From assembly GCA_017442155.1 (NCBI GenBank), contig JAFSAU010000004.1:404-64403 (forward strand): DNA of 64,000 bases, given 5' to 3'. The notes below the pieces were generated by a model that saw only the letters and a program-made list of their open reading frames with translations, searched no databases and had not been told where the DNA came from. Origin of the DNA: Clostridia bacterium (GTDB lineage: Bacteria; Bacillota; Clostridia; UMGS1883; UMGS1540). Shown here piece by piece: positions 8,569-59,995 of the stretch. The position numbers and the translations under genes were made by a program. Numbering within the stretch: position 1 is the stretch's first letter; each line of letters begins with the position of its first letter.

Positions 8569-8664
8569 AGGTGTATTTTGTTATAGTTTTTGCCCCTATT
8601 GGCCGAGAAACCGTAGGGGCTTTAGTGTATACTGTTTTAAAAAACAGAAAAGGACGTGGTGACC

Positions 8665-17211: not shown

Positions 17212-17231
17212 GAAGCACCGCGTGCTTTTTA
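17212..17231 (+). terminator. weak hairpin between the AraC gene and the module A operon
   Basis: GAAGCAC-CGC-GTGCTT stem of 6-7 bp followed by TTTTTAAT. This may be a leaky terminator or attenuator. Confidence 0.3.
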
Positions 17232-17258
17232 ATAAAAAATTTAGGAGGAAGAACAACA

Positions 17259-18356: not shown

Positions 18357-18378
18357 GCCTGTGAAAAAAGAGGGAACA

Positions 18379-21300
18379 ATGAGACGAAAGAAATGCTGTG
18401 CGGTACTTCTGGTGCTTTTGTGTATCGCACTTTGCCTGCCGGGACTGCCGGCAGGCGCGGCAGACAAGACGGAGCTTCTGGATAACGGCGGCTTTGAACG
18501 CACCTTTTCCGACGGCACGCCCGGCGCATGGATTTTTTCGGACAAAGAGAACACCGGCGTACAAAGTACGGGCGGATATGAAAATTCGGCATATCTTCAG
18601 CTTGGCGGCACTTCTTCAAATTACGCCCTGCAGAGTATTGCCGGCATCCGGGGTGGAGGGGCTTACACCTTTTCAGCCTATATCCGCACAGCATCACCGG
18701 CAAAGGCAATTTTGAAAATTGAGTGGTATGCACGAGAAAACGGAGCCTTGTCGGCTATTTCTCCGACAGAGTATGTTTTTTCGGATGCATCATCCGCATG
18801 GAAAACACTTTCCATACAGGTGACCGCGCCGGACGGTGCGGTATATGCCCGCTTGCTTATCCGGAAAATGGGAAGCGGTGCTGTTTGCTGGGATGCAGTC
18901 AGCCTTGTGGGAGCCTATGAAAAACAGATGGTAGCTTCCACTGATTTTAAGCCTCCGGTCCAGGGGGCAGTAGAAGCCTTTCGCAACGGCGGTTTCGAGG
19001 AAATAAAGGATGGTGAGGCACTGCGCTGGGATAAAAGCAGCGGATTAAATTTTTCTCTCGAAACCGTCCGTCCCTTTAGCGGGACCACAAGCTTCCTGAT
19101 TGAGGGGAATGATACGAATGAAAAGCCATGGATACGGCAGGTATATACCGGGGCCGAGGGCGGGAGTATGTATCAGCTTTCCTGCTGGGTGGCTTCCTAC
19201 ATAAAAGAAGGGTATTTTTCCTTTAAATTGGAGTTTTATAACAGTACTGCCTGCTCTGCGGCAACGGCCATTTCCAACGTAGTCAGCGGTGGATGTCTGA
19301 ATACCGACGGTGTATGGAAGCAGGTAGTAATTCCTATCCGCACGCCGGACACCTGTAAATCCATTGCAGTATACCCCCGGTTTTACGGCGGTGTGGGGAG
19401 GGTGTATATCGACGAGCTTTCCCTGTATCAGACAGAGAAAAACAGTCCCCTTTCTTTAAACACAGATGCTATATTTTATTACAGTGACCGCACGGAGGAT
19501 GGCGTGGCCACTGTGGAAAGTACGCCCTTTTATACAGATGAAAACATTACAGAAGTTGCGTTTTCACTCCTCGATGCGACCGGAATAGCAAAAAAGACGG
19601 AAACAGTTTCCTATACGAATCAAAAAGCAAATTTTTCATTTCCCCTTTCTCTCCTGGAAACGGAAAAGGTGGAATATGCGGTGCACGCAAAGGCAATGAA
19701 TTCGGGGGGGAGTGTGGTCTGGGAAAAGAGGGCACCTGTGTACAAATATCCAAGACCGGGTATGCTGGATAAGCAGGGAAACTGCTATGTAGACGGAGAA
19801 ATTTTCACGCCTGTCATTTCCTACCATCATCACCCGCGGGACTACGATAAAGCCGCGGCCATGGGCGTGAATGTGGTCCAGTCCTACGGAATGACAGGAA
19901 CAGCTATCCTGGATGAAGCGGCGAAATATAATATTAAGGTCTTAATGATTTTATATGAGGGAATGAAGCCGGCAGGACATCCGGAAAATATAGAAAAGAC
20001 CCGGGCACTTGTCAGTGAGGTCAAGGACCATCCGGCACTATTCGGCTATGCAGTGATGGATGAGCCGTATTATAACTATACGGCCCCGGAGGATTGGCTT
20101 TTTTCTTCGTATAAAACGATTCGCGATATTGATTCTTACCATCCCGTGTATGTATGCGAAAACACCCGGGAGCATCTGGCACAGTCGCAGAAATATGTGG
20201 ATGTGCTTGGCATTGACCCCTATATTGCTGATAAAAGTGACGAGGTCTTGACATTGGTATATGATGAAACGGTGTTTGCTGTAGAAAATACCGAGCCGGG
20301 TAAGCCAGTGTATGCGCTGCTACAGGCCTTTGACTTTAAAGGCTATTTCCCCACGGGGGAAGAACTTCGCCATCAGATGTATCAGGCATTTATGGGTGGC
20401 GCAAAGGGCGTAGGATACTTTGCTTTTAATGACAGTAAGGACGGAAAAAAACTGAGCGAGACAGAGCTTTGGAATAGCATTTGTGATTTTACAGCCAATG
20501 AATTGGAACCGGCTATATACGGGTTTGCGCAGGATACGGCTTGTACGAAACAATTGGGGACAAACGTAGATGCGGCCTGGTGGAACAAAGGAGAGGAAAC
20601 GACGCTGCTTCTTCTCAATCACACAGACAGTACGCAAACGGGTACACTGTCACTTGCGGGACTTACGGAAGGGGCCGACGTGGCAGAGATTCTGGGCGAT
20701 GGAATCGGAACACTCAACGGTACGTCCTTTACATATCACATCGGAGGAAGTGCGGCGGTACGGGTTACCCTTTGTAAAACCGATACGCCCTGGAACGGAA
20801 ATCTGTTTACCGGCAGTAGTGATGCCGAGCTTTCAATCATAGAGAAAACAGTTTATAATCTTCGGGAGGGCGAACGGTATTCCCTGCATTTTCAGGCAAA
20901 GTGCAGTGACCCGACAAAGGCACCGCGGCTTCGTTTGACCTTTTCAAATACGGCAAACACGGCATCTTCTACGGCATTTTCTTCCCAGGCAATTCTGAGC
21001 GGGGCTGATGCAGTTCCGTCTTTTGGGACTACGGACTGGCAGTCGTATGAAATCACCTTCCGGGTGCCGGAGGGTGCCGACACGGTAACGCTTCTTCTGG
21101 GAAGTGTGTCCGGCGGCACATATAAAATGGCAAAGCTTTTTCGGGAGACAAAGGCTATGACCTTCTATACCGGTGCAGAAGTAATGGAAACGAAAGCTTC
21201 GGTGACGGAAACCGTCAACAATACCGGTAGAACAAAAACCTATTATCTTGCGGCTGTCCGTGGAGAACAGACGGACAAGGCGGCAGAAGCGACACAAATA

Positions 21301-21540
21301 CTTTACCGAAAGCACGAGGCCGAGGAAAATATGCTTATTTCTGTCCCGCTCTATAAAAGTGTGGTTTCGGAAAGGGCAGAGCTTCTTTCCGTAGAACTCC
21401 GTCAGCTTGAAAAGGGAGCATATGCCTGTATTTTGCAGCCTGTGCCGACAGGTGTGGAATCTTTCCTGCAAAAAATATTTTTGTTTTCAATGACGGGCCT
21501 ACGACCGCTTTCGGATGCAAAAACATATGAATTCAACTGA
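18379..21540 (+). CDS. secreted CBM-CBM-sandwich-(beta/alpha)8-like-barrel protein without SLH (module A, gene 2)
   Basis: ATG 18379 follows AGAGGGA. Signal peptide MRRKKCCAVLLVLLCIALCLPGLPAGAAD. It has LLDNGGFE and FRNGGFEE CBM-like modules. Barrel motifs are PVISYHH, GVNVVQ, MDEPYYN, IDPYIA, LLQAFDF and GYFAF. An extra C-terminal CBM-like module is present, and the protein ends QKIFLFSMTGLRPL. 1053 aa. Confidence 0.75.
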   Translation: MRRKKCCAVLLVLLCIALCLPGLPAGAADKTELLDNGGFERTFSDGTPGAWIFSDKENTGVQSTGGYENSAYLQLGGTSSNYALQSIAGIRGGGAYTFSAYIRTASPAKAILKIEWYARENGALSAISPTEYVFSDASSAWKTLSIQVTAPDGAVYARLLIRKMGSGAVCWDAVSLVGAYEKQMVASTDFKPPVQGAVEAFRNGGFEEIKDGEALRWDKSSGLNFSLETVRPFSGTTSFLIEGNDTNEKPWIRQVYTGAEGGSMYQLSCWVASYIKEGYFSFKLEFYNSTACSAATAISNVVSGGCLNTDGVWKQVVIPIRTPDTCKSIAVYPRFYGGVGRVYIDELSLYQTEKNSPLSLNTDAIFYYSDRTEDGVATVESTPFYTDENITEVAFSLLDATGIAKKTETVSYTNQKANFSFPLSLLETEKVEYAVHAKAMNSGGSVVWEKRAPVYKYPRPGMLDKQGNCYVDGEIFTPVISYHHHPRDYDKAAAMGVNVVQSYGMTGTAILDEAAKYNIKVLMILYEGMKPAGHPENIEKTRALVSEVKDHPALFGYAVMDEPYYNYTAPEDWLFSSYKTIRDIDSYHPVYVCENTREHLAQSQKYVDVLGIDPYIADKSDEVLTLVYDETVFAVENTEPGKPVYALLQAFDFKGYFPTGEELRHQMYQAFMGGAKGVGYFAFNDSKDGKKLSETELWNSICDFTANELEPAIYGFAQDTACTKQLGTNVDAAWWNKGEETTLLLLNHTDSTQTGTLSLAGLTEGADVAEILGDGIGTLNGTSFTYHIGGSAAVRVTLCKTDTPWNGNLFTGSSDAELSIIEKTVYNLREGERYSLHFQAKCSDPTKAPRLRLTFSNTANTASSTAFSSQAILSGADAVPSFGTTDWQSYEITFRVPEGADTVTLLLGSVSGGTYKMAKLFRETKAMTFYTGAEVMETKASVTETVNNTGRTKTYYLAAVRGEQTDKAAEATQILYRKHEAEENMLISVPLYKSVVSERAELLSVELRQLEKGAYACILQPVPTGVESFLQKIFLFSMTGLRPLSDAKTYEFN

Positions 21541-21562
21541 AAACGATAGGATGGAGAGGATT

Positions 21563-24500
21563 ATGATGAATAAAAGAATTACTGCGATATGTTTATTATG
21601 TGTGCTTCTTTTGGGCTGTATCGGTCTCTCGGCAGGTGCGGAGGAAGCAAAAGAAAATCTTTTGCGAAACGGTGATATGGAAAAGGTCAGCACCAACGGA
21701 CACCCCCTAATCTGGACTGAGGTGGAAGAGATTAAGTCTACCACGGAGTATCACCGCTCCGGCAACTACGCCATGAAAATTGAGAAGGAATACACACAGC
21801 AGAGTGTTTACGGTATTATCCCCGGAGAAGAATATCAGCTGGAAGTCTGGTATCTTGCCGCCGGTGGCGTACCTCGCATCAAGGGCTCCTGGTGGATTGA
21901 CCACGAGGATGGAACACGGGATGCGGCCGGAGGCGACTATCTTCCGGTGGCGGAGAACAGCGGCCGTCCGCAAGGAAAGTGGACAAAGTTTTCCTATACA
22001 CTTACGGCGCCGGAGAACGTAACACGGTTAACCATTATGCTGCGGTTTGCCCTTGGCGAGGCTGTCGCAATTGTGGATGACGTTTCGGTAACGGGTCACA
22101 CGGAAGGTGCGGGGGATGCAGCACTTTCCGAAGACCAGATTTTTCCGACCGTTGAGGACACAGGGGAGATTATTGAAAACGGAAGTTTTGAAAAGCTTAC
22201 GGATGGAAAGCCGGAAGGTGCCTGGGGTGCCTATAAGAAAAACTTTGTCGGGAATGAGTATGTATCCATTGAAAATTTCGGGCATACCGGAGACAAATCT
22301 GCGAGGCTTACGGCGGCGAAAACCGGGACAAATCCCTGGATAAATTATGCGATTCCTGTAGAGGAGGGAGCCAGATACCAGGTTACGCTGTGGATTTTCA
22401 CAGAAATAAAATCCGGTTATTATTCCATGAAGCTGGAGTTTTATAACAGTGAGGAATGTACAGCGGAAACGAGTGTGGGCTATTCCCAGTCCTGGCAACA
22501 TAAGAAATCCGGCGGACGTTGGAAGCAGGTCAGTGTAGAGTTTATTGCACCGGCCACAACGAAAACGACGAAAATTTACCCGCGTCTGTACGGAGCAGGA
22601 TATGTATATATAGACGACGTATCCTGTCGGCAGATTGTCGAACAGCCGATATTTGATATGGATACCGACCAGGTATTCTACTATTCCGATTATAAGCCGA
22701 AGGGCGTTGCTACCCTGACGAAGAAATATTACAGCGGCGAAGAAATCGGGGATGCAAAATTTTATTTTCTGGACGGAGAGACCGTATTGGCAGAGGAAAC
22801 CATGCCATTTGCCGGTGAGAGTGTGGAATTTCAATATTCCATGAAGCTGTTTGAAGAAAAACAGAAGGAGTATACAATTCGTGCAGAGGTATTAAAGCCG
22901 GACGGAACCGTCTACCGGCAGTATAATCAGCCGGTATATAAATACGACCGACCGTCCAATATCAACGAAAAAGGTGAAATTATTGTAGATGGCGAGGTGT
23001 TCCATCCCATCTTTTCCTACCATCATCCGGAGGCAAATTTTGAAGAGGCCAAGGAAATGGGCGTAAACACCATTCAGCAGTATGCTCTGGAATATCTGGG
23101 CAAGGAATATCTGGATTACTGCCACGAGCACGGTCTCAAGGTACTCGTGATGATGTATGCGGATATGCGCCCGCCGGCACATCCGGAGGTAAAGCAGGCA
23201 CGTCTTGACAAGCTGGCGTATTGTAAGGGACACCCGGCTGTTCTGGGCTATGCACTGATGGATGAACCCTACTATAATATTAACGACCCCGAGGATTTAC
23301 TTCGTGAGTCGTATAAAATGCTTCGCGACTATGACATGGAAAAACCTGTGTTTATGGTGGATGAAGCTTCCGAGAACCAGGATATTATCGGTAAATACTG
23401 CGACATTGTGGCCGTTGACCCATATATTGCAAGCCGCGGAAAGGATGCTGTAGGCACACAGCCTACCTATGGTGTATCTCTGGCAGACAAAGGCGGAGAT
23501 TATAATAAGCCCGTATTTTCACTTCTGCAGGCCTTCGATTTCCAGGAATATTGGCCAACGGACATGGAACTGAAGAACATGGTGTACCAGAACTTCTTAG
23601 CCGGTGCATATTCTACGGGATACTTTGCTTTTGACAGGGCGAAGGACGGAAAACCGCTGGATGAAACAGAAATCTGGGATATTATTGTTGAAATGGGTGA
23701 AAAGGATATCCCTGAGCTGTTTGATGTTTTTGTTGACCATGCGTATCCGGTTGTCTTTGAACAGCGAACAGATGTAGCCTGGATTTACGGATATTTTAAG
23801 GAAGGAAACATTCACATTATCTGCCTCAATAAGACCCAGAAGGACCAGGTGGTTTCCATTCCCCTTGTAAGCTTTGACGAAAAGGTACATGTAAACGGGT
23901 TTACGGCACAAATTCATAGAGAAAAGACTACCTCTGTTACCGAGGAAGGCGATACACTTACAGTAAGCATGGGTCCGGTTGAAGTCGTAAATTGCGTGGT
24001 GACGCCAAAGGAAGCAATAGATGAAAGTCTTCTGACTACCATGCGGTTTGTGGATTTGTATGACTATGCCTGGGCAAGAAATCAGATTGAAATGCTGGCC
24101 GCAAAGGAGCTGGTTAATTACCCGACCTATAAGAGCTTCCAGCCGGGACGTAACATCACCCGCGGCGAGTTCGCACTCTTCCTGGTACGAACCTTAGGTC
24201 TTGAGGGTGAAACAGCAGAAAACTTTGTCGATGTGGAGCCGGATGCGGAATATGCGAAAGAGCTTGCCATCGGTCGTGCCGCAGGTATCTTAAACGGTAT
24301 TGGCGATAACAAGTATAATCCGGAGGCAGAAATTACAAGACAGGACATGATGACCATTATTGCCCGCGGCATGAAGCTTCTGGAAACAGAAGCGGATTTG
24401 ACCGGCTTCAGTGATACAGGCCTCATTGCCGACTATGCACTGGAAGGCGTTCGGGCAATGGTAGGCACAGGGCTTGTAAAGGGGAATGCAGACGGCACCT

Positions 24501-24568
24501 TAAATCCGCTCGGGAACACAACCCGTGCAGAGGCGGCCGTAATTATGAGCCGGATTCTTGCACAGTAA
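21563..24568 (+). CDS. secreted CBM-CBM-barrel protein with 3 C-terminal SLH repeats (module A, gene 3)
   Basis: ATG 21563/21566 follows GGAGAGG. Signal peptide MMNKRITAICLLCVLLLGCIGLSAGA. It has LLRNGDME and IIENGSFE modules. Barrel motifs are PIFSYHH, GVNTIQ, MDEPYYN, VDPYIA, LLQAFDF and GYFAF. 1001 aa. Confidence 0.8.
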   Translation: MMNKRITAICLLCVLLLGCIGLSAGAEEAKENLLRNGDMEKVSTNGHPLIWTEVEEIKSTTEYHRSGNYAMKIEKEYTQQSVYGIIPGEEYQLEVWYLAAGGVPRIKGSWWIDHEDGTRDAAGGDYLPVAENSGRPQGKWTKFSYTLTAPENVTRLTIMLRFALGEAVAIVDDVSVTGHTEGAGDAALSEDQIFPTVEDTGEIIENGSFEKLTDGKPEGAWGAYKKNFVGNEYVSIENFGHTGDKSARLTAAKTGTNPWINYAIPVEEGARYQVTLWIFTEIKSGYYSMKLEFYNSEECTAETSVGYSQSWQHKKSGGRWKQVSVEFIAPATTKTTKIYPRLYGAGYVYIDDVSCRQIVEQPIFDMDTDQVFYYSDYKPKGVATLTKKYYSGEEIGDAKFYFLDGETVLAEETMPFAGESVEFQYSMKLFEEKQKEYTIRAEVLKPDGTVYRQYNQPVYKYDRPSNINEKGEIIVDGEVFHPIFSYHHPEANFEEAKEMGVNTIQQYALEYLGKEYLDYCHEHGLKVLVMMYADMRPPAHPEVKQARLDKLAYCKGHPAVLGYALMDEPYYNINDPEDLLRESYKMLRDYDMEKPVFMVDEASENQDIIGKYCDIVAVDPYIASRGKDAVGTQPTYGVSLADKGGDYNKPVFSLLQAFDFQEYWPTDMELKNMVYQNFLAGAYSTGYFAFDRAKDGKPLDETEIWDIIVEMGEKDIPELFDVFVDHAYPVVFEQRTDVAWIYGYFKEGNIHIICLNKTQKDQVVSIPLVSFDEKVHVNGFTAQIHREKTTSVTEEGDTLTVSMGPVEVVNCVVTPKEAIDESLLTTMRFVDLYDYAWARNQIEMLAAKELVNYPTYKSFQPGRNITRGEFALFLVRTLGLEGETAENFVDVEPDAEYAKELAIGRAAGILNGIGDNKYNPEAEITRQDMMTIIARGMKLLETEADLTGFSDTGLIADYALEGVRAMVGTGLVKGNADGTLNPLGNTTRAEAAVIMSRILAQ
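24041..24565 (+). other. three SLH (S-layer homology) repeats
   Basis: FVDLYDYAWARNQIEML..., FVDVEPDAEYAKELAIGRAAGILNG... and FSDTGLIADYALEGVRAMVGTGLVKG...TRAEAAVIMSRIL each fit the SLH pattern F-D...A...I......G-(I/L/V)-x-G. Confidence 0.85.
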
Positions 24569-24589: not shown

Positions 24590-27500
24590 TTGAAATTTAA
24601 AAAACTGATTGCAATGCTTCTGACTTGCGTTTTGTTCGTGCCGATGATAGGCATGGCAGAAGAAACAAAGGTCGGTGAATTGCTTATCAACGGTGATTTT
24701 GAAACGTTGACTTCAAACGGAGGCTTTTTGGTATGGGGCCAAAAGGAAGGGATTTCACCAAGCAGTGATATTAAATACGACGGCGAATACTCCATGATGA
24801 TCAGCAAAGACTATTTGTCCCAGCGCGTATACGGTGTTTTGGGCGGAGGAACGTACACACTGTCGGGCTACTATATGGGAAATGTGCCGCGTGTGAAGGT
24901 TGACTGCTATAAAAATGACGAGAACGGCTCCAGGGTTCATCTCGGAGGAGAATATCTGGATGTGGCTTCTGCAACTGAAAAGCGTGCCGTGCGGAATTTC
25001 AGAAAATTTTCTCTGGAATATACACTTCCGGCAGATACTCTTTTTGTAGATGTGATGCTTCGTAACAGTCTGGAGGAAAGTCCTACCACGTATATAGATA
25101 ATGTTTCCCTGGTCGGACCGAAAACGGCAACGAATGAGTCTGCCTTGCCGTCGGAAGCAATCTATCCGCCCGTGGAGGGGGCGACGAATCTGATTGAGAA
25201 CGGTAGCTTTGAGATGCTCACAAACGGCGTGCCGGAGCCTTTTGGCTGTTACAAGGGCTGGGAAAACAATCAGAGAATCCAGGTGCTCAAAAGCGAAGCA
25301 ATGGCACATGACGGCAAAAACTGTATGCTTATCACAGCAGAAAAGACCGGCATAAACCCTTGGATAAACTATAAAATACCGGTGGAGGGCGGAGCACGGT
25401 ATCAGATTCTAATGTGGATTTGCTCCAGCATATCCAGCGGATACAGTGGGATGAAGCTGGAGTTTTACGACCATCCCGAAGTGAAAGCAGAATATGATGC
25501 AGGCTACAGCCAGTCCTGGAGCCATAAAAGCACCAATAATGTTTGGAAACAGACGGCTGTGGAATTTGTTGCACCCGATGATGCAGTTCTGGTAGCCATT
25601 TATCCCCGCCTTTTTGGCAGTGGCAGTCTGTATATCGACGATTTGCAGTGCTATAAAATTGGGAACACACCGCAGATGAAGCTGAATACAGACCAGGTTT
25701 TCTATTATGATGACTGGAAGCATGATGGGATTGTAACCGTATCCAAAACCGTTCATTTCGCAGGTCCTACCCTTGATAAGGTAGAAATGTCGTTTGTCGA
25801 TGGAGAAGAAGTGCTGTATGAAGATAGCTGTGCATTTGTGGGCGATAGTGTAAGCCTTACGTTTCCTATGAAGACATTCAAGGAAAAACAGAAGGAATAC
25901 AAAATTAAGGTGCAGGTGCTGGATACTGACGGCAATGTTTTTGACCGGCAGGAACAGAGAGTGTACATGTATCCCCGTCCGAGTTACCTGAATGAAAACG
26001 GCGATTTTATCATCGACGGCGAAATCTTTAATCCCGTATTTTCTTATCACCATTCTATTAAATATTGGGATCAGGCGATTGAAATGGGTGTAAATACGGT
26101 ACAACAGTATAATGACGGCGTGGAACAAGGCAAAGCAATCCTGGATGCCGCGGCAGAAAAGGGGCTTAAAGTACTGGCCAATCTTTACGGTAACATGCGT
26201 CCGCCGTCCCATCCCGATGTAATTGAATCGCGCAAGGCGTATATTGAGTCCATTAAAGACCATCCGGCACTTTTAGGGTATCTTCTGTTTGATGAACCGT
26301 TCTATAATATCAATGACCCGGAGCCGTATCTACATGATTCCTATAAGCTCATTCGTGATATTGACCCGGACCATCCCGTCTTGATTATGGACGAGGGCGG
26401 TGGTCATGACGGCACAACACAGAAATACTGTGACGTTCTTTCCATAGACCCCTATATTGCCAATCTTTACTTTTTAGGAGAAGATGCGGTAGGTACACAT
26501 CCGGCAGAAACGGTTATGGAGGCAGATGCACAGGCATATTATAACAAACCTATTTATTCCCTTTTACAGGCCTTTGAGTTCAAGGAATATATGCCTACAT
26601 CGGATGAACTGCGGAACATGGTGTACCAGAATTTCCTGGCAGGGGCACATGCCACAGGCTATTATTGCTTTGAAGAATCGCAGCCCGGAAAAAACCTGGA
26701 CGAAACCGAGCTATGGGATGGCATTAAAGCCATGGCAGGAGACGAACTGGACGAGCTTTTTGATGTTTTTATTGAGAAGAAATACCCGGTATTTAACGAG
26801 CTTCGCTCGGATGATGCATGGATTTTTGCCTATGAAAAAGAAGGAAAGATTCATTACATCGTGCAAAATAAGAGACAGAGCGAGGTAATGGTAACGTTAC
26901 CGACCACCTCCTTCGACGGCTCGGTAAATCTTGGCAATTATACAGTACAACTGACAGACAAAAAAGGCGTTAAGATGGAAACCGGGGAAAGCCTGCAGCT
27001 TACCATGGATGCCGTTGCGGTCGTTCGCCTTGTTGTTACTCCCGAGACAGGAACGGATTTATCAGGTCTTACCACGATGCAGTTTTATGATTTATATAAT
27101 TATGCCTGGGCGAGAACGGAAATTGAAAAGCTCAATGCAAAAGGCCTTGTGAATGATTACACGCCGAAGAGTTTTGCACCGGGCAAAAACATCACCCGTG
27201 GTGACTTTGCACTCTTCCTGGTACGCACATTGGGACTTGAAGGCGAAGATGCAGAAAACTTTGCAGACGTAGATCCCGATGCAGAATACGCAAAGGAAAT
27301 CGCCATCGGACGTGCCGCCGGCATTTTAAACGGAATCGGTGACAATAAATATAATCCCGAGGCTGAAATTTCCCGTCAGGATATGATGACGATTATTGCA
27401 CGCGGTATGAAGCTTTTGGGAACGGAAGCGGATTTATCCGGCTTCAGCGATACAGGTCTCATTGCCGATTATGCACTGGAAGGCGTTCGTGCTATGGTAG

Positions 27501-27604
27501 GAACCGGGCTTGTAAAGGGGAATGCAGACGGCACCTTAAATCCGCTGGGGAACACAACCCGTGCTGAAGCGGCGGTCATTATGAGCCGGATTCTTGCACA
27601 GTAA
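24590..27604 (+). CDS. secreted CBM-CBM-barrel protein with 3 C-terminal SLH repeats (module A, gene 4)
   Basis: TTG start at 24590, 9 nt after ACGGAGG, is the only in-frame start giving the signal peptide MKFKKLIAMLLTCVLFVPMIGMA. It has LLINGDFE and LIENGSFE modules. Barrel motifs are PVFSYHH, GVNTVQ, FDEPFYN, IDPYIA, LLQAFEF and GYYCF. 1004 aa. Confidence 0.8.
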   Translation: MKFKKLIAMLLTCVLFVPMIGMAEETKVGELLINGDFETLTSNGGFLVWGQKEGISPSSDIKYDGEYSMMISKDYLSQRVYGVLGGGTYTLSGYYMGNVPRVKVDCYKNDENGSRVHLGGEYLDVASATEKRAVRNFRKFSLEYTLPADTLFVDVMLRNSLEESPTTYIDNVSLVGPKTATNESALPSEAIYPPVEGATNLIENGSFEMLTNGVPEPFGCYKGWENNQRIQVLKSEAMAHDGKNCMLITAEKTGINPWINYKIPVEGGARYQILMWICSSISSGYSGMKLEFYDHPEVKAEYDAGYSQSWSHKSTNNVWKQTAVEFVAPDDAVLVAIYPRLFGSGSLYIDDLQCYKIGNTPQMKLNTDQVFYYDDWKHDGIVTVSKTVHFAGPTLDKVEMSFVDGEEVLYEDSCAFVGDSVSLTFPMKTFKEKQKEYKIKVQVLDTDGNVFDRQEQRVYMYPRPSYLNENGDFIIDGEIFNPVFSYHHSIKYWDQAIEMGVNTVQQYNDGVEQGKAILDAAAEKGLKVLANLYGNMRPPSHPDVIESRKAYIESIKDHPALLGYLLFDEPFYNINDPEPYLHDSYKLIRDIDPDHPVLIMDEGGGHDGTTQKYCDVLSIDPYIANLYFLGEDAVGTHPAETVMEADAQAYYNKPIYSLLQAFEFKEYMPTSDELRNMVYQNFLAGAHATGYYCFEESQPGKNLDETELWDGIKAMAGDELDELFDVFIEKKYPVFNELRSDDAWIFAYEKEGKIHYIVQNKRQSEVMVTLPTTSFDGSVNLGNYTVQLTDKKGVKMETGESLQLTMDAVAVVRLVVTPETGTDLSGLTTMQFYDLYNYAWARTEIEKLNAKGLVNDYTPKSFAPGKNITRGDFALFLVRTLGLEGEDAENFADVDPDAEYAKEIAIGRAAGILNGIGDNKYNPEAEISRQDMMTIIARGMKLLGTEADLSGFSDTGLIADYALEGVRAMVGTGLVKGNADGTLNPLGNTTRAEAAVIMSRILAQ
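27077..27601 (+). other. three SLH repeats
   Basis: 175 codons collinear with 24041-24565. The last 54 residues are identical to those of the preceding paralog. Confidence 0.85.
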
Positions 27605-27634
27605 ATATTTTTGACACTAAAGTGGGAATGCTCT

Positions 27635-33833: not shown

Positions 33834-33848
33834 GAAAGGGTGACAAAA

Positions 33849-36725: not shown

Positions 36726-36764
36726 TTTTTTGCAGAGCAAAAGAAAGCAGAAGGAGATGTGGAT

Positions 36765-40218: not shown

Positions 40219-41766
40219 ATGAAAAACGCAAAGAAACTTATGGGATTGGTACTGACAGTAATGATGCTGGCCTCGCTGGCGGTTGTTCCGGCAGTACGGG
40301 CAGAAGAAGGAGAAACGGCGACAGGTACAGAATTGATTGTCAACGGCGGTTTTGAGCCGGAAGAGGGAACGGAAGTGACCTCTACCACCTGGTTTGAAAA
40401 CTGGGAGTATAATGCAAACGCATCAGCCACCACTTCTGGCAAAGCATATAACTGTAATAATACAGTGCTTGGAACGGATGTATTTCTGACCGGCAGTGAG
40501 AAGCATAGTGGTTCATATGCACTTGCAGCAAAATTCAGCGGAGGAGCAGACCATAGAAGAATCTGGACGCTGGTGCAAGGCCTTGAGGCAGGGAAATGGT
40601 ATCAGGCTTCTGCGTGGGTAAAAATCAGTGGAACAGAAATTGACAAAACAACGATTTCATCACCATATAAGGGTGTAGCACTTCGTGTCAACAAGGGAAA
40701 CATGGCAACAACAACGTATGGAAATACCAGCTATGTATTGGGACGAACTTCTGCATCATCTGCCTATAACAATATAATTTCCACAAAAGGAGAATGGGCC
40801 AGAATCGGCGTGAATTTCATGGCTGCGAGCGATAAAGCTACGGTGATGCTCAACATGGGTGATGGTGCGGAAGGCGCGGTTGCATACTGGGATGATGTTG
40901 CTGTTGTGGAATTAACGGACTTTAACGGCGATTTTGAGACAACGGAGGGTGCCGGTCTTTTAGGCTGGAACAGCGGATATTCCGATAATAATGCACTGGT
41001 GGGCTACGAAGCCGTTGCAGTGCAGGAAGACGGGTGCGGCGGAACGGCTGCTCTGAAGCTTGTGGGAGACAGCGAAACCGGTGATGTAAAGCGCGTTTAT
41101 ACAGTGCTTACGGGACTGGAAGCCGGAAAAAGATATGGTATTCGTATACGGCACAAGGCAACAAGCACAAGAATGACGGAAGGCGATGAACCGACCGCTG
41201 CTACGGCAATCGGAAGCAATCCGAAAATGCATGTGGTAGACAATAAAGAAACACCTGCTGACAGTACTGCCTGGCTTTGTATCTCCAATATGTCAAAGGC
41301 AGTAAATACATGGAAAACCAGTGAGGGAACATTTTTGGTTCCGGCAGTGGAAGAAGGCGAGGATACAACGGCGCATACGTTTATCACACTGAGCTGTAAG
41401 CTCCTGGCTGGTGAAGCAGTTTTCTTTGACGATATAGAAGTATTTGAAACAAATGTAAAATACTATAATAGTGATGACGAAGAACTGAAAAATGTAACAG
41501 CCGGTACCATTAAAGCGGTAGCTGAATTTGTTAACCCGAAAGCAGAAGCGACAGATGCTACATTGGTTGTGGCGGTATATAAATCGGTAAATGGTGCAAA
41601 GCAGCTGAAAAGCATTGACATTAAGGTTATGGAAGATGTGGCGGTAAAGGCAATAGGAACAGCTACGGGTACGGTGACAGCAGAAGCCGGCGATACGGTG
41701 AAAGCGATGCTTTTAGACAGCACTGCAGCACTGACACCGATAACAAGCCCGTTTATTCTGGAGTAA
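40219..41766 (+). CDS. secreted CBM-only protein (module B, gene 1)
   Basis: RBS AAAGGAGA. Signal peptide MKNAKKLMGLVLTVMMLASLAVVPAVRA. Two CBM4/9/22-like modules (LIVNGGFE...YWDDVAVVE; FNGDFE...FFDDIEVFE). The C-terminal roughly 85 aa end VKAMLLDSTAALTPI. 515 aa. Confidence 0.7.
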   Translation: MKNAKKLMGLVLTVMMLASLAVVPAVRAEEGETATGTELIVNGGFEPEEGTEVTSTTWFENWEYNANASATTSGKAYNCNNTVLGTDVFLTGSEKHSGSYALAAKFSGGADHRRIWTLVQGLEAGKWYQASAWVKISGTEIDKTTISSPYKGVALRVNKGNMATTTYGNTSYVLGRTSASSAYNNIISTKGEWARIGVNFMAASDKATVMLNMGDGAEGAVAYWDDVAVVELTDFNGDFETTEGAGLLGWNSGYSDNNALVGYEAVAVQEDGCGGTAALKLVGDSETGDVKRVYTVLTGLEAGKRYGIRIRHKATSTRMTEGDEPTAATAIGSNPKMHVVDNKETPADSTAWLCISNMSKAVNTWKTSEGTFLVPAVEEGEDTTAHTFITLSCKLLAGEAVFFDDIEVFETNVKYYNSDDEELKNVTAGTIKAVAEFVNPKAEATDATLVVAVYKSVNGAKQLKSIDIKVMEDVAVKAIGTATGTVTAEAGDTVKAMLLDSTAALTPITSPFILE

Positions 41767-41772
41767 CCGAAC

Positions 41773-44592
41773 ATGAAAATCGGGCGAAAAATAGGTAGCT
41801 TTTGCATGGCACTTTTGCTGCTGACGGGGGCAGGGCTTTCCCTGCCCGCACAGTCGGCAGAATCGGAGACCTACCTCTGGCCCCGGGGCATCGGGGCCGG
41901 AGGCAGTACGGAAGCGTACATCACCCGGAAGGGCGAACACGCGGAAGCCACCCGGGAGGAAGTGCACAGCGGCAATTACGCGGTTAAGGTATGGAACAAG
42001 AACACAAACCGTACCCGCATATGGGCCGAGGCAGAGGGACTGACAACGGGGAGGACGTATACGGCCACAGTATTTGTAAAGTTTGCGGCCGGTACCTTTA
42101 CGCAGAATCGCGGCGTATATTTATATGCGATGGCAGACCATACAAAGGGTGCATCCCTGTCAATAAAAAGCAAATTCTGCAAAAGTGCGGCAGACTGGAC
42201 ACAGCTTTCTGTCACGTTTACCCTGCCGGAAAACAGCGGCCGCGTAACCCTTTGCATGGATGCCCAGCCCATAGAAAACGGATATGCCGTATACTGGGAC
42301 GACCTGACGCTTTCTGGCTATAGCGGAGACTTAAATGGTGGATTTGAAACGGTGGACGAATGGGAGTATATCCGGGAGGACGAGACGGTTATGCCCGAGG
42401 ATGGAGAGAGTATACTCCCGAACGGAAATTTTGAGTCGGATTGTAAAACAGCGGGAACGGCTTCGCGTTGGACGGCCTATAAAGGCTGGTCGGATTCCAA
42501 TTCCTTTGTCACGATTTCCGATTCGGTTTTCCGCGCGGAAGATACCGGTTTGTCTACGGGACATTCCCTCCGGCTTTCCGCTAAGGAGGCGGACGGGGAT
42601 GCGAATCCCTGGTGCAGTAAGATGCTGTCGGTGACGCCGCTTACCGAATATGTGGTTTCTGCCTATGTACGCGCGGATGCTTTAGTAGGGGATGCGAGGG
42701 CAAGAATCAAGTTTGAATGTTACACGGAGCCGAGGGGCAGCAGTGCAAAGGCCGGCGCGGATTTTAATTCGGAGGAGATTGGCGCGGTAACAAACGGAGA
42801 ATGGGTACAGCTCATCCAGACCTTTTATACCCGTGAAAACTGCTACGGCGTAGCGGTAATGCCCCGGCTGTACGGTGCAGGGGAAGTGTACTTCGACGAT
42901 ATTGCGGTAAAGCAGAAGAGTGCGCGGGCACAGTTCCATTTTTCGACGGACGGGGTGTATTATTACACGGATATGTCCCGGGGCGTGGCTACTGCCACGG
43001 CACTGCGTGACCTTTCTTATGCGGGCAAAACCGTTTCCTTCAGTCTTTCTGCAAACGGTGAAATAGTGCAAAAAGCGGAAAACGTGCCCTTTACAGACGG
43101 AAAAGCAGAATTTACCTATTCGCTGACAGCACTCAGAAAGAACACGCCGTATACACTCACGGCAGTGCTTCTAAGCGGCACCGCAGAAGTAGACCGGCAG
43201 GAAACGGAAATTTACAGGATGGAACGCCCCGCCTATCTCCGGAAGGACGGGGTATATTTGAAAAACAGGGAGACACCGTTTTACCCCGTAATCGCATATC
43301 ACGTCTCCCGTGAGGATTACGGGAAAATGCCGGAAGCCGGTATCAATGTGGTGCAGGCCACCTTTACAGATTATACGGCCCTTCGGAATTCTCTGGATGC
43401 GGCGGAAAAAGAGGGAATCATGGTGCTGGCGGCACTGTATTCCGGGATGGAAATGCCAACCTCTCCCGGGAAATATGATATTTCCTATGAAGCCATTACC
43501 CGCCTCCGGAAGCATCCGGCACTGTATGGCTGGATGGTGATGGATGAGCCGTTTGCGAATTATCCGCACCACGAGGCGGAAAAGGGCCTTCGGGAAGCAT
43601 ATCTTTTCATACGCAGTCTTGACCCGGACCATCCGGTGTATGTGCTGGACAACCAGGCAATCACCTTTAGCGTTACGGCAAAATACGCGGATATACTGGC
43701 AACGGACCCGTATACGGCCGCAAAGCACGACCGTGCAAATTACGTATACAACCAGATGGCGGCGGCAAAAGAGGCGGCAGGCGATAAACCGACCTATGCG
43801 ATTTTGCAGGCGTTTCGCTACAGCGGTGTATTTCCTACCGGAGCGGAGCTTCGCTCGGCCATTTATCAGGCCTTTATGGCAGATGCATCGGCGGTAGGGT
43901 ATTACGCCATTGGGGATGCGGATGGAGCACTGGAGCTGTATGATACGCCGCTCTGGGAAAGCATGTGTTCTTATGTAGAACCCGATTTTAAGGTCCTCTA
44001 TGAAGGAACGGGCGGCGAGACGGAGAGCGGTACGGGGTACCGCATGAAACCGTACACGCTAAATGGTGTTACGTATCTTGCGGTACAGAATACAAAGAGT
44101 ACCGCGGCAGACGTGGGCTATACCTATGCGGAAACCGTGGCGGCACTTCCGGCTATGGGGGCATCGGAGGGAGAATGCATCCATACGGGAACGGTATATA
44201 CAGCGGACGAAGGGGCTCTTTCTGTACCGCTCCAGGCGTGCGGCACGGGTCTGTATGCATTGTATACGGGTGAGGAGGAAGCCGCTGTTTTGTGCAGACA
44301 AAACGGAAAGCTGACATTTTCACCGGGTACAGGCAGTATGGAACTGGAGTTCCGCTATAAAAACAGCGGAACGCAGCAGGAGGAATATGCCTTTTATCTT
44401 GCGACATATGCGGATGGAGAAAAAGGAAAAGAACTGATAGACCTTGCAAGCACAAAGCACACAGTTGCTTCCGGCGAAACCGTCCGGGAAAGGTTTCCGG
44501 CAGAATGCGGAAGCGGCCAGACGGTATGTGCTATGTTCTGGAAAGCAGGCCTTGTGCCGCAGATGAAGACATTTTATAATGGAGGTTTATGA
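41773..44592 (+). CDS. secreted CBM-CBM-barrel protein without SLH (module B, gene 2)
   Basis: Signal peptide MKIGRKIGSFCMALLLLTGAGLSLPAQSA. Barrel motifs are PVIAYH, GINVVQ, MDEPFAN, TDPYTA, ILQAFRY and GYYAI. The C-terminus ends VCAMFWKAGLVPQ. 939 aa. Confidence 0.75.
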   Translation: MKIGRKIGSFCMALLLLTGAGLSLPAQSAESETYLWPRGIGAGGSTEAYITRKGEHAEATREEVHSGNYAVKVWNKNTNRTRIWAEAEGLTTGRTYTATVFVKFAAGTFTQNRGVYLYAMADHTKGASLSIKSKFCKSAADWTQLSVTFTLPENSGRVTLCMDAQPIENGYAVYWDDLTLSGYSGDLNGGFETVDEWEYIREDETVMPEDGESILPNGNFESDCKTAGTASRWTAYKGWSDSNSFVTISDSVFRAEDTGLSTGHSLRLSAKEADGDANPWCSKMLSVTPLTEYVVSAYVRADALVGDARARIKFECYTEPRGSSAKAGADFNSEEIGAVTNGEWVQLIQTFYTRENCYGVAVMPRLYGAGEVYFDDIAVKQKSARAQFHFSTDGVYYYTDMSRGVATATALRDLSYAGKTVSFSLSANGEIVQKAENVPFTDGKAEFTYSLTALRKNTPYTLTAVLLSGTAEVDRQETEIYRMERPAYLRKDGVYLKNRETPFYPVIAYHVSREDYGKMPEAGINVVQATFTDYTALRNSLDAAEKEGIMVLAALYSGMEMPTSPGKYDISYEAITRLRKHPALYGWMVMDEPFANYPHHEAEKGLREAYLFIRSLDPDHPVYVLDNQAITFSVTAKYADILATDPYTAAKHDRANYVYNQMAAAKEAAGDKPTYAILQAFRYSGVFPTGAELRSAIYQAFMADASAVGYYAIGDADGALELYDTPLWESMCSYVEPDFKVLYEGTGGETESGTGYRMKPYTLNGVTYLAVQNTKSTAADVGYTYAETVAALPAMGASEGECIHTGTVYTADEGALSVPLQACGTGLYALYTGEEEAAVLCRQNGKLTFSPGTGSMELEFRYKNSGTQQEEYAFYLATYADGEKGKELIDLASTKHTVASGETVRERFPAECGSGQTVCAMFWKAGLVPQMKTFYNGGL

Positions 44593-47500
44593 TGAAACGT
44601 TTTGTTGCTTTGGGACTTATAATACTGCTGGTGATAACGGCCATACCGGTGCTGGCAGAAAATATGTATAATTATACCTGGGCGGAAGGCTGGGATGTGG
44701 GAACCTATTCGTATGTGACGGAAAAGGGTACCCATGCGTTCGTAACCACGGAGCAGGCGCATGAGGGAACATATTCCATGAAAATCCGGAACAAGGAAAA
44801 GGATCTGACACGTGTCTGGACGAAGATTACCGGTCTGGAACCCGGAAAAACCTATACGGCCAGCGTATATGTGAAAATTATAGGCGCACTGCCGGAGGGA
44901 GCGGGCGCACTGCTTCGCGTTACGGCAGATTATAAAGACGGCGCAGGGAAGGCATGGAAAGCGTCTGAACGCATTTCCGGTACGCAAAAACGCTGGAAGG
45001 AGCTTACGGCAAAGTTTACTGTGCCGGCAGGCATGACGGAAGCGGCAGTTTGTCTGGACACAGGCAATGTAACAGATGATAATTTTGTATATTGGGATTC
45101 TCTCACAGTAGAAGGTGTGGAGGTTACAAACGGCAGCTTTGAATCCATCATTGAAATTAAGCCCGAAGTAATTGAAGTTCCGGAAGGGGCAGAAAACCTG
45201 ATAGAAAACGGCGGCTTTGAGGCCGTGGACGGCGTAGCTGCCGTGGGATGGAATGCATATAAGGACTGGAAAGACAATCCTTACGTTTCCGTAACAACGG
45301 AAAAAGCCCATTCCGGTAGTCGCAGTATAAAACTTACCAATGACGGCACGGGAACAAACCCCTGGGTAAATATAAAGGTACAGGTAGAGCCCGGTGTGGA
45401 CTACCTGATTACCATGTGGGTATGGTGCGAAAAGCTTCCGTCGGGAAAGGATACCCGGATTAAGTTTGAGCCGTATTCCGACCCGGTGGAATTTACGGCT
45501 AAAACGGCACTGGACGGTTCCTTTAACTCGGCACCAGTAACCAATACCTTCGGAGAATGGATGAAGATTCAGCAGAAGTTTTCGTCCAGCGTAGAGTGTC
45601 AGGGTGTAGCAATTTATCCCCGTTTATACAGCGGCTCCGGTGCTTGCTATTACGATGATGTGGAAATGTATAAAATCACAGAGCCGAGAAAAATATTTGC
45701 CACAACAAACTGGGGCATTTACTATCCCGATTTTGAGGAAGGATATGCCACAGTAACACCCTATACCGGTTTTGAAACCGGGGAAACTACGGTCGGGTTT
45801 GAATTCTTAGACGGCGACAAGGTGCTTCTTTCCCAGGAAGCCCGCCCCTTCCAGGATGGACAGGTGCAGTTCTTTTACCCGGTATCGCTTCTTTCGGAGC
45901 TGACGAAAGAATACGTTGTCCGGGCAACGCTCTATGATATAGACGGAAACGTTCTGGAAAGTATGGATTGCCCTATCTATAAATACGAACGGTCTCCGTA
46001 TCTTAGGGAGGATGGCGTTTTCCTGAAAAATAAGACCGAACCTTTTTATCCGGTCCTTGCTTACCATGCTTATGGCAAGGAACATTTCCCCTATCTTGCA
46101 GAAGGCGGTATTAACGCGATTCAGGTGCATTTTACAAGCATAGGTGAACTTGACAGCATCATGAAAAATGTGGTAGAATATAATGTGATGGCCATGATTG
46201 CGCTGTACCGCGGCGGCGGTTTTGCAGGAGACCCGGAAAATCAGGAAATGAATGCGGAAGCGATTACAAAATATAAGGATCATCCAAACGTAATGGGCTG
46301 GATGATTCAGGATGAACCCTTTAATAAGGGCGAGTATTTTGACGTTTTAAAGCGTCTTCGTGAATCCTATACATTCATTAAAAGATATGATCCGGAACAT
46401 CCGGTGTACTGTCTGGATGCCTCTGTCGGCACGTTTGTGCAAACGGCAAAATGGGTGGATATCTTAACGACAGACCCCTATCCCACCTCAAAACGCGACC
46501 CGGCTACATTTGTCGCCACTCGCTGTGCGGCACTTCGGGAAGCAACCCAGGGCGAAAAGCCGGGCTGGTCTGTGGTGCAGGCTTATGAGGGCGGTATATG
46601 GCCTACAGGCGATCAGTACAGAAGCAGTCTCTATCAGTCGCTTTTCGGCGGCGCAAAGGGCCTGGGACTGTATGCGGTCAGCGATGCGCGGTATATTGAC
46701 GGCGTAAAGACGGAGCTTTACAAAACAGACCTTTGGCCGGCACTCAAGGAATTTGCCGAGGTGGATTTCCAGATGGCAAACGAGGTGTTTGTCAGTGCAG
46801 AGATTCCCACATTCAATGAAGTGCGGGGCGAAAAATACTGGTACAGAAGCTGGGAAAAGGATGGAAAGCTCTATCTGATTATTTTAAATCGGGATAACGA
46901 TAATGAAACAGAGGCAGAAATTCAGCTCACTTCCTTTGATGGTAGCGTAACTGTGGGTGGTTTCTCCGGCAAAATTATTGCAGGAGGAGAAGGAGAGGCC
47001 AGCGGAAACGGGGTTTTAAAAGCAAAACTCCAGCCCTGCGCGGCACAGCTCTGGGAACTGGAGCTTTCCACGCCCGTGGATTTCAGCGTAAGTGCACCGT
47101 ACACCTATTTTGATATGGATGCATACGGTTGGGCAAGAAGTGCGGCAGAGCTGATGAAGGAAAAGGGCATAACCTACGACCCGGTGTCCTATGCCTTCCG
47201 CCCCGGTGAGAAAATCACCCGCGGTGACCTGGCAATGTTCCTGGTCCGTTCTTTAGGTCTTACGGGCGAGGGCGGGGAAAACTTTGCCGACGTACCGGCA
47301 GAGGCCCACTATGCCAAAGAGCTTGCCATCGGAAAAGCGGCCGGCATCTTAAACGGCGTGGGCGACAATAAGTTTAATCCGGAAGCTGAAATCACACGCC
47401 AGGATATGATGACAATTATATCCCGCGGTATGGCTCTGCAAGGCGAAACAGATGTGATGGCCTTTTCTGACAGCGGTCTTATTGCAGACTATGCCCTGCC

Positions 47501-47624
47501 CCACGTAAAGGCTATGATTTCTTCGGGCCTTGTAAAAGGAAATGCAGACGGAACCCTAAATCCGCTGGGGAACACAACTCGTGCGGAAGCGGCTGTCATT
47601 ATGCAGCGGATACTAAAAAGGTAG
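44589..47624 (+). CDS. secreted CBM-CBM-barrel protein with 3 SLH repeats (module B, gene 3)
   Basis: The ATG overlaps the upstream stop (ATGA) and follows GGAGG. Signal peptide MMKRFVALGLIILLVITAIPVLA. Barrel motifs are PVLAYH, GINAIQ, QDEPFNK, TDPYPT, VVQAYEGGIWPT and GLYAV. 1011 aa. Confidence 0.8.
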   Translation: MMKRFVALGLIILLVITAIPVLAENMYNYTWAEGWDVGTYSYVTEKGTHAFVTTEQAHEGTYSMKIRNKEKDLTRVWTKITGLEPGKTYTASVYVKIIGALPEGAGALLRVTADYKDGAGKAWKASERISGTQKRWKELTAKFTVPAGMTEAAVCLDTGNVTDDNFVYWDSLTVEGVEVTNGSFESIIEIKPEVIEVPEGAENLIENGGFEAVDGVAAVGWNAYKDWKDNPYVSVTTEKAHSGSRSIKLTNDGTGTNPWVNIKVQVEPGVDYLITMWVWCEKLPSGKDTRIKFEPYSDPVEFTAKTALDGSFNSAPVTNTFGEWMKIQQKFSSSVECQGVAIYPRLYSGSGACYYDDVEMYKITEPRKIFATTNWGIYYPDFEEGYATVTPYTGFETGETTVGFEFLDGDKVLLSQEARPFQDGQVQFFYPVSLLSELTKEYVVRATLYDIDGNVLESMDCPIYKYERSPYLREDGVFLKNKTEPFYPVLAYHAYGKEHFPYLAEGGINAIQVHFTSIGELDSIMKNVVEYNVMAMIALYRGGGFAGDPENQEMNAEAITKYKDHPNVMGWMIQDEPFNKGEYFDVLKRLRESYTFIKRYDPEHPVYCLDASVGTFVQTAKWVDILTTDPYPTSKRDPATFVATRCAALREATQGEKPGWSVVQAYEGGIWPTGDQYRSSLYQSLFGGAKGLGLYAVSDARYIDGVKTELYKTDLWPALKEFAEVDFQMANEVFVSAEIPTFNEVRGEKYWYRSWEKDGKLYLIILNRDNDNETEAEIQLTSFDGSVTVGGFSGKIIAGGEGEASGNGVLKAKLQPCAAQLWELELSTPVDFSVSAPYTYFDMDAYGWARSAAELMKEKGITYDPVSYAFRPGEKITRGDLAMFLVRSLGLTGEGGENFADVPAEAHYAKELAIGKAAGILNGVGDNKFNPEAEITRQDMMTIISRGMALQGETDVMAFSDSGLIADYALPHVKAMISSGLVKGNADGTLNPLGNTTRAEAAVIMQRILKR
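47100..47621 (+). other. three SLH repeats
   Basis: YTYFDMDAYGWARSAAELM..., FADVPAEAHYAKELAIGKAAGILNG... and FSDSGLIADYALPHVKAMISSGLVKG...TRAEAAVIMQRIL. Confidence 0.85.
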
Positions 47625-57394: not shown

Positions 57395-57505
57395 TGACAT
57401 ATTTACTTTGTAAATACGATATATCCTCTCATAGCGAAAGGGATATAGCTTCTCTACGATATGTCATAAAATCGCTGATTTTATGACGCTATGATAGCTT
57501 CGCAA

Positions 57506-59980: not shown

Positions 59981-59995
59981 TGTAAATTCCTCCTC

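Follow-up and report, generated by a model that had tools for sequence, protein, structure and literature searches.

Clan GH-A is the best-studied scaffold among glycosidases, and an Asn-Glu pair together with a Glu on barrel strand 7 is treated as diagnostic of it. The Asn of its N-E-P motif hydrogen-bonds the C2 substituent of the -1 sugar. Within glycoside hydrolase (GH) family GH2, the enzymes carry an N-E motif, an invariant Glu nucleophile in loop 7, a Tyr in loop 6 and an Arg on strand 2 (PMC12243196). In GH20 and GH123, the 2-acetamido group that attacks C1 is positioned and polarised by an Asp, with help from a conserved Tyr; for the GH123/DUF4091 beta-N-acetylgalactosaminidases, a D-E pair with a conserved Tyr is the signature of this substrate-assisted mechanism, and a beta-sandwich precedes the barrel (PMC11087588). 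Here we describe a barrel domain shared by six paralogous proteins, W1 to W6, encoded in a 64,000-nucleotide stretch of the genome of a gut-type Clostridia bacterium (contig JAFSAU010000004.1, positions 404 to 64,403; hereafter the window). An earlier note, made from the sequence alone, had reported in this domain an invariant D-E-P motif and a Gln where the nucleophile was expected; the gene containing the coordinates of that finding is W2. The barrel of this family is of the clan GH-A type, and its catalytic apparatus is altered.

Results

The six DEP codon triplets and two CAG codons for Gln quoted in the earlier note all translate as stated, and the motif order that it had aligned by hand was reproduced with MAFFT in the six paralogs. 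This order, FxP(V/I)xxYH, G(V/I)NxxQ, HPxxxG(Y/W)xxxDEP(Y/F), HPV, K(Y/W)xD(I/V)xxxDPY, KPxxx(L/V/I)(L/V)QA(F/Y), PTxxx..YQ and Gx(Y/F)(A/C), is far beyond chance. No family in Pfam-A or NCBIfam covers the approximately 360 motif-bearing residues of the six proteins. For the motif region, AlphaFold2 gave a (beta/alpha)8 barrel and, after it, a beta-sandwich, with a predicted local distance difference test score (pLDDT) of 82.5, and a barrel-only model based on a 44-sequence alignment reached a pLDDT of 94 and a predicted template modelling score of 0.91. In domain numbering, to which 471 is added to obtain the residue in the open reading frame (ORF) starting at 21515 (D112 = D583, E113 = E584, D164 = D635, Y166 = Y637, Q201 = Q672), the eight strands of W2 span residues 28-30, 48-50, 71-75, 105-112, 141-145, 160-163, 196-201 and 229-233. 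The conserved motifs map to the C-terminal strand ends of the modelled barrel: Y31-H32 on strand 1, N47 and Q50 on strand 2, Y77 on strand 3, D112-E113 on strand 4, D164-P-Y166 on strand 6, Q201 on strand 7 and Y232-(Y/F)233 on strand 8. Weak Glyco_hydro_30C matches to the C-terminal beta-sandwich were found in 6/34 family members.

Against PDB sequences, a profile of these 34 family sequences matched GH158 (1.5e-12), human beta-glucuronidase (GUS; 2e-11) and then other GH2 glucuronidases; GH5 endoglucanases and mannanases were matched as well. In the alignment with GUS, kdHPavfgyavmDEPf falls on KNHPAVVMWSVANEPA, which equates E113 with GUS E451, and IRdiDdehpVy falls on TKSLDPSRPVT. Furthermore, YvDiLaiDpYp falls on YVDVICLNSYY, placing D159 on a conserved Asp, D164 on N502 and Y166 on Y504, and yeKPvy falls on YQKPII directly before strand 7 (GUS residues were counted along the printed alignment with a known offset of 20). 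E113, which directly follows strand 4, also lies on the NE(P) Glu in GH158, and the earlier assignment of the DEP Glu to the acid/base site of GH-A is thereby supported. Moreover, the 50 best Foldseek matches of the barrel-only model all belong to clan GH-A (GH2 glucuronidases and galacturonidases, GH164, GH157, GH158, GH42, GH5 and GH72), with TMq values of at most 0.70 and identities of at most 17%. The proposal of a clan GH-A-type barrel is thus borne out by the profile alignments, the model and the structural matches.

Pfam gave the 34 members only sub-threshold matches at E<=1, to GH2_C (18/34), GH42 (11/34), GH140-like (5/34) and GH5 (1/34) families; of the families named for checking in the earlier note, GH2, GH42 and GH5 therefore appeared at this level only, and GH123/DUF4091 and GH20 did not appear. 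No Glyco_hydro_2_C match was obtained for the six window proteins at E<=0.01, and the best of the 34 members (5.6e-07) was partial. Among the hallmarks of GH2, the catalytic-site Tyr of loop 6 is present as Y166. The family lacks the N-E motif, the loop-7 Glu and a conserved Arg on strand 2, where N47 and Q50 are found.

Conservation was evaluated in 157 barrels, comprising the best 150 library representatives (50% identity clusters), the six window copies and one duplicate (P0003, identical to W2). D112, E113, D159 and Y166 are invariant (157/157). Y129 is conserved in 99%, D136 and D164 in 98%, and R8, P9, G16, Y77, K194, P195, P210 and G231 in at least 93%, with an acid on strand 5 in only 81%. 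As the earlier note had suspected, strand 7 bears no conserved carboxylate: across positions 196-206, the highest share of Asp or Glu is 32%, at position 204. The Gln described as invariant is so only among the six window copies and P0001. Family-wide, position 201 is Gln in 129/157 (82%), Glu in 9/157 (6%) and otherwise K, A, S, G, C, T, W, H, L or R, so that the strand-7 Glu nucleophile of clan GH-A is not a family feature. Since such varied residues are tolerated, the Gln itself is not essential and is unlikely, on this sequence evidence, to be catalytic.

A subclade with Glu at position 201 (for example P0022, P0029, P0074, P0085, P0090, P0096, P0125, P0138 and P0149) reads KPVYxLLEA(Y/F) in place of the usual KPVYxLLQA(F/Y), and in most of these members M-D-E-V or M-D-E-A stands in for M-D-E-P. 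A classical nucleophile may have been kept in this subclade. Position 201 is indicated to be the former nucleophile site because this subclade carries its Glu there. In the profile alignment, D136 matches the Asp of GH2 LDPxRP, D159 that of VDVICLN and D164 the N502 of GUS. Having structural or binding counterparts in GH2, these three residues leave only D112-E113 as catalytic candidates.

The D-E motif and conserved Tyr match the pattern of GH123/DUF4091, and the mechanistic analogy that the earlier note had drawn with GH20 and GH123 stands at this level. No similarity in sequence or among the top-ranked structural matches accompanied it. The DUF4091 module (PF13320) was not matched in the full paralogs or in the 34 family barrels at E<=1, nor was Glyco_hydro_20 in the full proteins or the 34 members at E<=1, and a profile search of PDB sequences at E<=10 found no GH20 or GH123 chain. 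In addition, hhalign against a single GH20 sequence, encoded beside a family member at locus L001, gave a probability of 0.07%, and neither fold was among the 50 best Foldseek matches. Judged from profiles and models, the barrel is a distinct, deep branch of clan GH-A and not a member of GH2, GH123 or GH20.

Other affinities were also considered. GH13 amylases dominated the Foldseek result of the two-domain model, which we attribute to the barrel-plus-sandwich layout common to both; the barrel-only model gave solely GH-A matches among its 50 best. A reading similar to GH13 or clan GH-D, with the nucleophile on strand 4 and the acid/base on strand 5 or 6, was rejected, given that strands 4 and 6 align residue by residue to GH2 and that the strand-5 acid is incompletely conserved. 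GH185 and GH163 (DUF4838) were rejected, as Pfam gave no signal.

The family is large. When 1.84 billion cluster representatives were scanned exhaustively with HMMER, 5235 proteins were retrieved at E<=1e-3, 2364 at E<=1e-10 and 486 at E<=1e-30, the weaker tiers including proteins matched by their carbohydrate-binding module (CBM) only, as the profile also spanned the N-terminal modules of P0001. A word-indexed homolog search returned 1 match for a single protein and 4 for the 34-sequence profile, in contrast to the thousands found by the exhaustive search. A profile search of contigs with three close paralogs returned two loci, both in one Clostridia metagenome-assembled genome (MAG). Named members are called 'hypothetical protein' or 'S-layer homology domain-containing protein' and come from MAGs of Clostridia, Oscillospiraceae or Ruminococcaceae. 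The barrel family has no name in Pfam 2025, NCBIfam 2026 or PDB sequences and structures to 2026 and no solved structure there, and no description of a GH-A family with a D-E pair was found in the full-text literature searched. The suggestion of a new family thus holds as far as these libraries go, and the catalytic module appears, from alignments and models, to have descended from a clan GH-A barrel to form a large separate family.

The six genes lie in two plus-strand arrays, W1-W2-W3 (array 1) and W4-W5-W6 (array 2). Their barrels align with 26-66% identity. The common module order starts with a signal peptide and CBM4_9, after which come an Ig-like beta-sandwich, the barrel and a C-terminal beta-sandwich; in 4/6, S-layer homology (SLH) repeats follow. 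A hydrophobic, signal-like segment was read directly at each N-terminus; Pfam assigned one or two CBM4_9 modules to 5/6 paralogs, with none in W3, and two or three C-terminal SLH repeats to W2, W3, W5 and W6. These features indicate that all six are secreted multi-modular glycoside-hydrolase-like proteins, four of which would be anchored to the cell wall through SLH. The exact W6 product is present on 10 metagenome contigs. Looking up the exact W2 sequence from its first ATG gave no match, the gene caller using a later start; P0003 is the 1001-residue W2 product, and 4/4 compared neighbour genes on its contig are 100% identical to those of the window and in identical order. The true start of W2 is therefore likely 21563, giving 1001 amino acids (aa) and no overlap with W1. 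A seventh large ORF, 27611-30688, was considered as a paralog and rejected, as it does not align to W1-W6 and encodes a different protein.

Members are encoded in tandem arrays of two to four genes that are accompanied by AraC-type regulators (neighbours are listed in Table 1). The product of 40219-41766, which heads array 2, is 26-29% identical over its full length to those of genes upstream of family arrays in L007 (19117-20709, minus strand) and L009 (8401-9963, plus strand). Such a protein of approximately 500 aa is often found upstream of family arrays, immediately so in three different genomes, and may be a dedicated partner of the family.

The GH89 gene that the earlier note had placed in the island (36759-39017, plus strand) is real, and a GH89-like gene recurs in L011. 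The island product is a divergent one, with a match above the Pfam cut-off only to the second half of the NAGLU TIM-barrel model; matches of the N- and C-terminal domains stay beneath that cut-off. In L011, from another Clostridia MAG, a NAGLU-like gene (586-2823) lies directly upstream of family members, and the pairing may be functional.

ORF 27611-30688 (plus strand, 1025 aa) closes array 1. Its sub-threshold matches were Pfam GLMA_2nd (20 bits) and a BT4145-type alpha-L-rhamnosidase of NCBIfam (27 bits against a cut-off of 1300), with no PDB sequence match, and it probably represents one more unclassified glycosidase. Unannotated proteins abound in the island: noise aside, no Pfam family was found at E<=0.1 for 17208-18356, 32040-33071, 33840-34508 and 54167-54973 (all plus strand). 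Neutral/alkaline ceramidase-like genes lie beside family members at two unrelated loci, L009 (4802-6115 and 6995-8341) and, with a faint match, L013 (172-1662). In L009, a GDPD phosphodiesterase accompanies them. For some members, these neighbours hint at substrates of the glycolipid or teichoic-acid type.

At the downstream edge, an 882-aa ORF (57491-60139, plus strand) was rejected as a further enzyme, being the antisense shadow of a minus-strand gene, 57506-59980. This gene encodes a fused E1 alpha/beta 2-oxoacid dehydrogenase and is accompanied by E3 (59996-61366) and E2 (61380-63080); therefore, the carbohydrate island ends near 57.2 kb. Upstream of the island, a GH92 alpha-mannosidase gene (1252-3474, minus strand) and a short fragment resembling GH43, whose match stays under the Pfam cut-off (8656-9582, plus strand), sit among housekeeping genes (class II aldolase, PHO4/PhoU and an SSF symporter).

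Table 1. Family genes, barrel domains and key residues of the window, with gene neighbours at the loci compared
Feature	Coordinates	Strand	Description
W1	18361..21540	+	1059 aa: signal peptide, CBM4_9 (CBM_4_9 4.8e-12), beta-sandwich, barrel, C-terminal beta-sandwich, non-SLH tail
W2	21515..24568	+	1017 aa as listed: signal peptide, two CBM4_9, beta-sandwich, barrel, beta-sandwich, three SLH
W3	24590..27604	+	1004 aa, three SLH
W4	41773..44592	+	939 aa, CBM4_9, without SLH
W5	44589..47624	+	1011 aa, two CBM4_9, SLH
W6	47640..50696	+	1018 aa, two CBM4_9, SLH
W2 (beta/alpha)8 barrel	22928..23743	+	residues 472-743; AlphaFold2 model mbf2f8044bd33
W2 C-terminal beta-sandwich after barrel	23744..24004	+	AlphaFold2 model mfd7f07800a37, strands 275-358
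W1 barrel and C-terminal sandwich	19735..20775	+	hmmsearch domain 459-805
W3 barrel and C-terminal sandwich	25955..27040	+	hmmsearch domain 456-817
W4 barrel and C-terminal sandwich	43207..44262	+	hmmsearch domain 479-830
W5 barrel and C-terminal sandwich	45969..47060	+	hmmsearch domain 461-824
W6 barrel and C-terminal sandwich	49032..50132	+	hmmsearch domain 465-831
W2 D583-E584-P585	23261..23269	+	end of strand 4; aligns to N-E of GH158/GH2
Equivalent DEP codons	20059-20067, 26291-26299, 43543-43551, 46311-46319, 49377-49385	+	other five paralogs
W2 D635-P636-Y637	23417..23425	+	end of strand 6; in the alignment, human GUS Y504 lies at the Tyr and N502 at the Asp
Equivalent DPY codons	starting at 20215, 26447, 43705, 46473, 49539	+	
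W2 Q672	23528..23530	+	end of strand 7; position of the missing nucleophile
Equivalent Gln codons	20323-20325, 26567-26569, 43807-43809, 46578-46580, 49644-49646	+	
515-aa protein heading array 2	40219..41766	+	weak CBM4_9 match only; no PDB sequence match
Array 1 neighbours (window)			1025-aa unknown, LacI-type regulator, SIS, GFO/IDH/MocA, beta-lactamase-fold protein, divergent GH89-like protein
Array 2 neighbours (window)			GDSL esterase, GH28, CE15 and 268-aa unknown on the same strand, gaps of 11-99 nucleotides; convergent GH78
L001 (P0001 locus) neighbours			GH35 and GH20, immediately downstream
L011 neighbours			GH89-like gene
L009 neighbours			GH28, ceramidase-like genes
L013 neighbours			faint ceramidase-like match
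L012 neighbours			GH31, esterases
L007 and L010 neighbours			GFO/IDH/MocA, DegT aminotransferase and GDSL in both; Amidohydro_2 in L007 only

Discussion

Because the D-E pair occurs without an enzymic nucleophile, as in GH20 and GH123, substrate-assisted hydrolysis of beta-linked N-acetylhexosamine (HexNAc) is the mechanism that we rank first, tentatively and by analogy. According to this scheme, the canonical strand-7 Glu nucleophile would have been lost and the GH-A Asn contacting the C2 substituent replaced by an invariant Asp, D583. This Asp would polarise the N-acetyl group of a beta-linked 2-acetamido sugar, whose carbonyl oxygen would attack C1, and E584 on strand 4 is predicted to be the general acid/base that protonates the leaving group. 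Y637 on strand 6 would serve as the conserved catalytic-site Tyr. Gene context partly favours HexNAc: GH35 and GH20 lie directly downstream of P0001, and members have a GH89-like neighbour gene both in the window and in L011. With somewhat less confidence, we speculate that the family, made up of cell-surface enzymes of gut and rumen Clostridia, is an independent GH-A conversion from a two-carboxylate to a substrate-assisted mechanism. It would then be a new GH family of beta-N-acetylhexosaminidases or endo-acting enzymes on HexNAc linkages, with LLEA(Y/F) members as the intermediate and arrays of differing specificities.

The following observations weigh against substrate assistance. The Glu-201 subclade keeps D-E alongside a strand-7 Glu; therefore, the Asp does not simply stand in for the nucleophile. 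When residues are counted from the conserved K-P, L671 (L200) and not Q672 coincides with the GUS nucleophile, a register uncertainty of one residue; neither position carries a conserved acid in the 157 barrels. Array 2 runs into GDSL esterase, GH28 and CE15 genes and GH28 is found again in L009, a context that points to uronic-acid-rich polysaccharides without HexNAc. Other loci contain GH31, ceramidase-like or oxidoreductase genes with no uniform HexNAc signal, and no nagA or nagB genes were seen. The context is thus mixed, with host-glycan or HexNAc-like loci on one side and acidic plant-polysaccharide-like loci on the other, and does not decide the mechanism. It fits a family of diversified specificities.

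The main rival, which we regard as rather doubtful, is ordinary hydrolysis of non-HexNAc substrates, such as uronic-acid-containing plant or bacterial polysaccharides, by a relocated catalytic residue. The nearest structural neighbours, GH2 beta-glucuronidases and beta-galacturonidases, would suit it, as would the GDSL, GH28 and CE15 genes and the unnamed gene that follow W4-W6, the GH28 gene near P0005 and the retention of D-E even in the subclade with a strand-7 Glu. D583 or, less likely, D635 would be the nucleophile; alternatively, D583 would activate a water in the strand-7 cavity for inverting hydrolysis with E584 as the acid, and the small residues tolerated at the strand-7 position (A, G, S, C and T) could admit such a water. 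D635, however, aligns to a substrate-binding position, GUS N502, and we take it to correspond to the His of the GH5 H-x-Y motif. Moreover, we know of no precedent for an adjacent Asp-Glu pair acting as nucleophile and acid/base, or for an inverting member of clan GH-A.

Non-hydrolytic carbohydrate chemistry, such as transglycosylation or a lyase or dehydratase-type activity, is improbable. A predicted GH family may consist of non-hydrolases, as GH154, which is a dehydratase, illustrates (PMC12269599), and GFO/IDH/MocA oxidoreductases, DegT aminotransferase, Amidohydro_2 and SIS proteins are frequent neighbours of the family. Nevertheless, the family keeps the GH-A scaffold together with the acid/base Glu and the strand-6 Tyr, and extracellular proteins with CBM and SLH modules are as expected of depolymerases.

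Still less probable are catalytically dead pseudo-enzymes that capture polysaccharide at the cell surface. The loss of the canonical nucleophile, the several CBMs, the SLH anchors and the tandem arrays would agree with such a role, but D-E, D-x-Y and several strand-end residues are invariant or nearly so in 157 sequences, most pairs of which are less than 50% identical, and such conservation is unusual for a decayed active site. A divergent GH123, DUF4091 relative or GH20 member, which the D-E pair, the conserved Tyr and the beta-sandwich ahead of the barrel might recall (PMC11087588), is highly improbable in view of the absent Pfam, PDB-profile and top-50 Foldseek matches and the negligible hhalign probability.

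Whichever mechanism applies, a family of at least 486 clusters keeps the GH-A scaffold, yet exchanges the Asn and drops the nucleophile, and is invisible to Pfam and NCBIfam annotation. With three to six copies per locus, it probably represents a major uncharted depolymerase activity of gut Clostridia and Oscillospiraceae. Should hydrolysis be substrate-assisted, the family would illustrate the switch of a retaining glycosidase from an enzyme-borne to a substrate-borne nucleophile, and natural intermediates could be studied; if not, it would hold a mechanism not yet described for the GH-A fold. The Glu-201 members offer natural controls for mechanism studies.

Among described systems, the GH2 beta-glucuronidases and beta-galacturonidases (human GUS, 1BHG/3HN3) likewise place an Ig-like beta-sandwich before a (beta/alpha)8 barrel. 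Their HPxxxxWxxxNEP corresponds to HPxxxG(Y/W)xxxDEP of the family, LDPxRPV to IDxxHPV and VDVICLNxY to xDILxxDPY; in both, strand 7 is preceded by K-P. These enzymes gave the best Foldseek matches (E 6e-11, TMq 0.68), and human GUS was the second-best PDB sequence match. In contrast to GH2, the family has Asp-Glu for Asn-Glu, no Glu nucleophile in loop 7 and no strand-2 Arg, at an identity of at most about 16%.

Of all PDB sequences, GH158 matched best, in a region covering strands 2-6; GH157 and GH164 were among the top structural matches, and GH157 and GH158 share the layout of a barrel followed by a C-terminal beta-sandwich. However, GH158 has N-E where the family has D-E, and the GH158, GH157 and GH164 matches span only part of the barrel. 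These three families are described as having two catalytic Glu residues, the second of which is the one that the family barrel lacks. GH123/DUF4091 and GH20 share with the family an adjacent Asp-Glu at a barrel strand end, a conserved Tyr and the absence of an enzymic nucleophile, and differ from it in lacking sequence or top-ranked structural similarity and in the DUF4091 module, which the family does not have. By analogy, the resemblance to GH123 and GH20 would be mechanistic and would have arisen by convergence.

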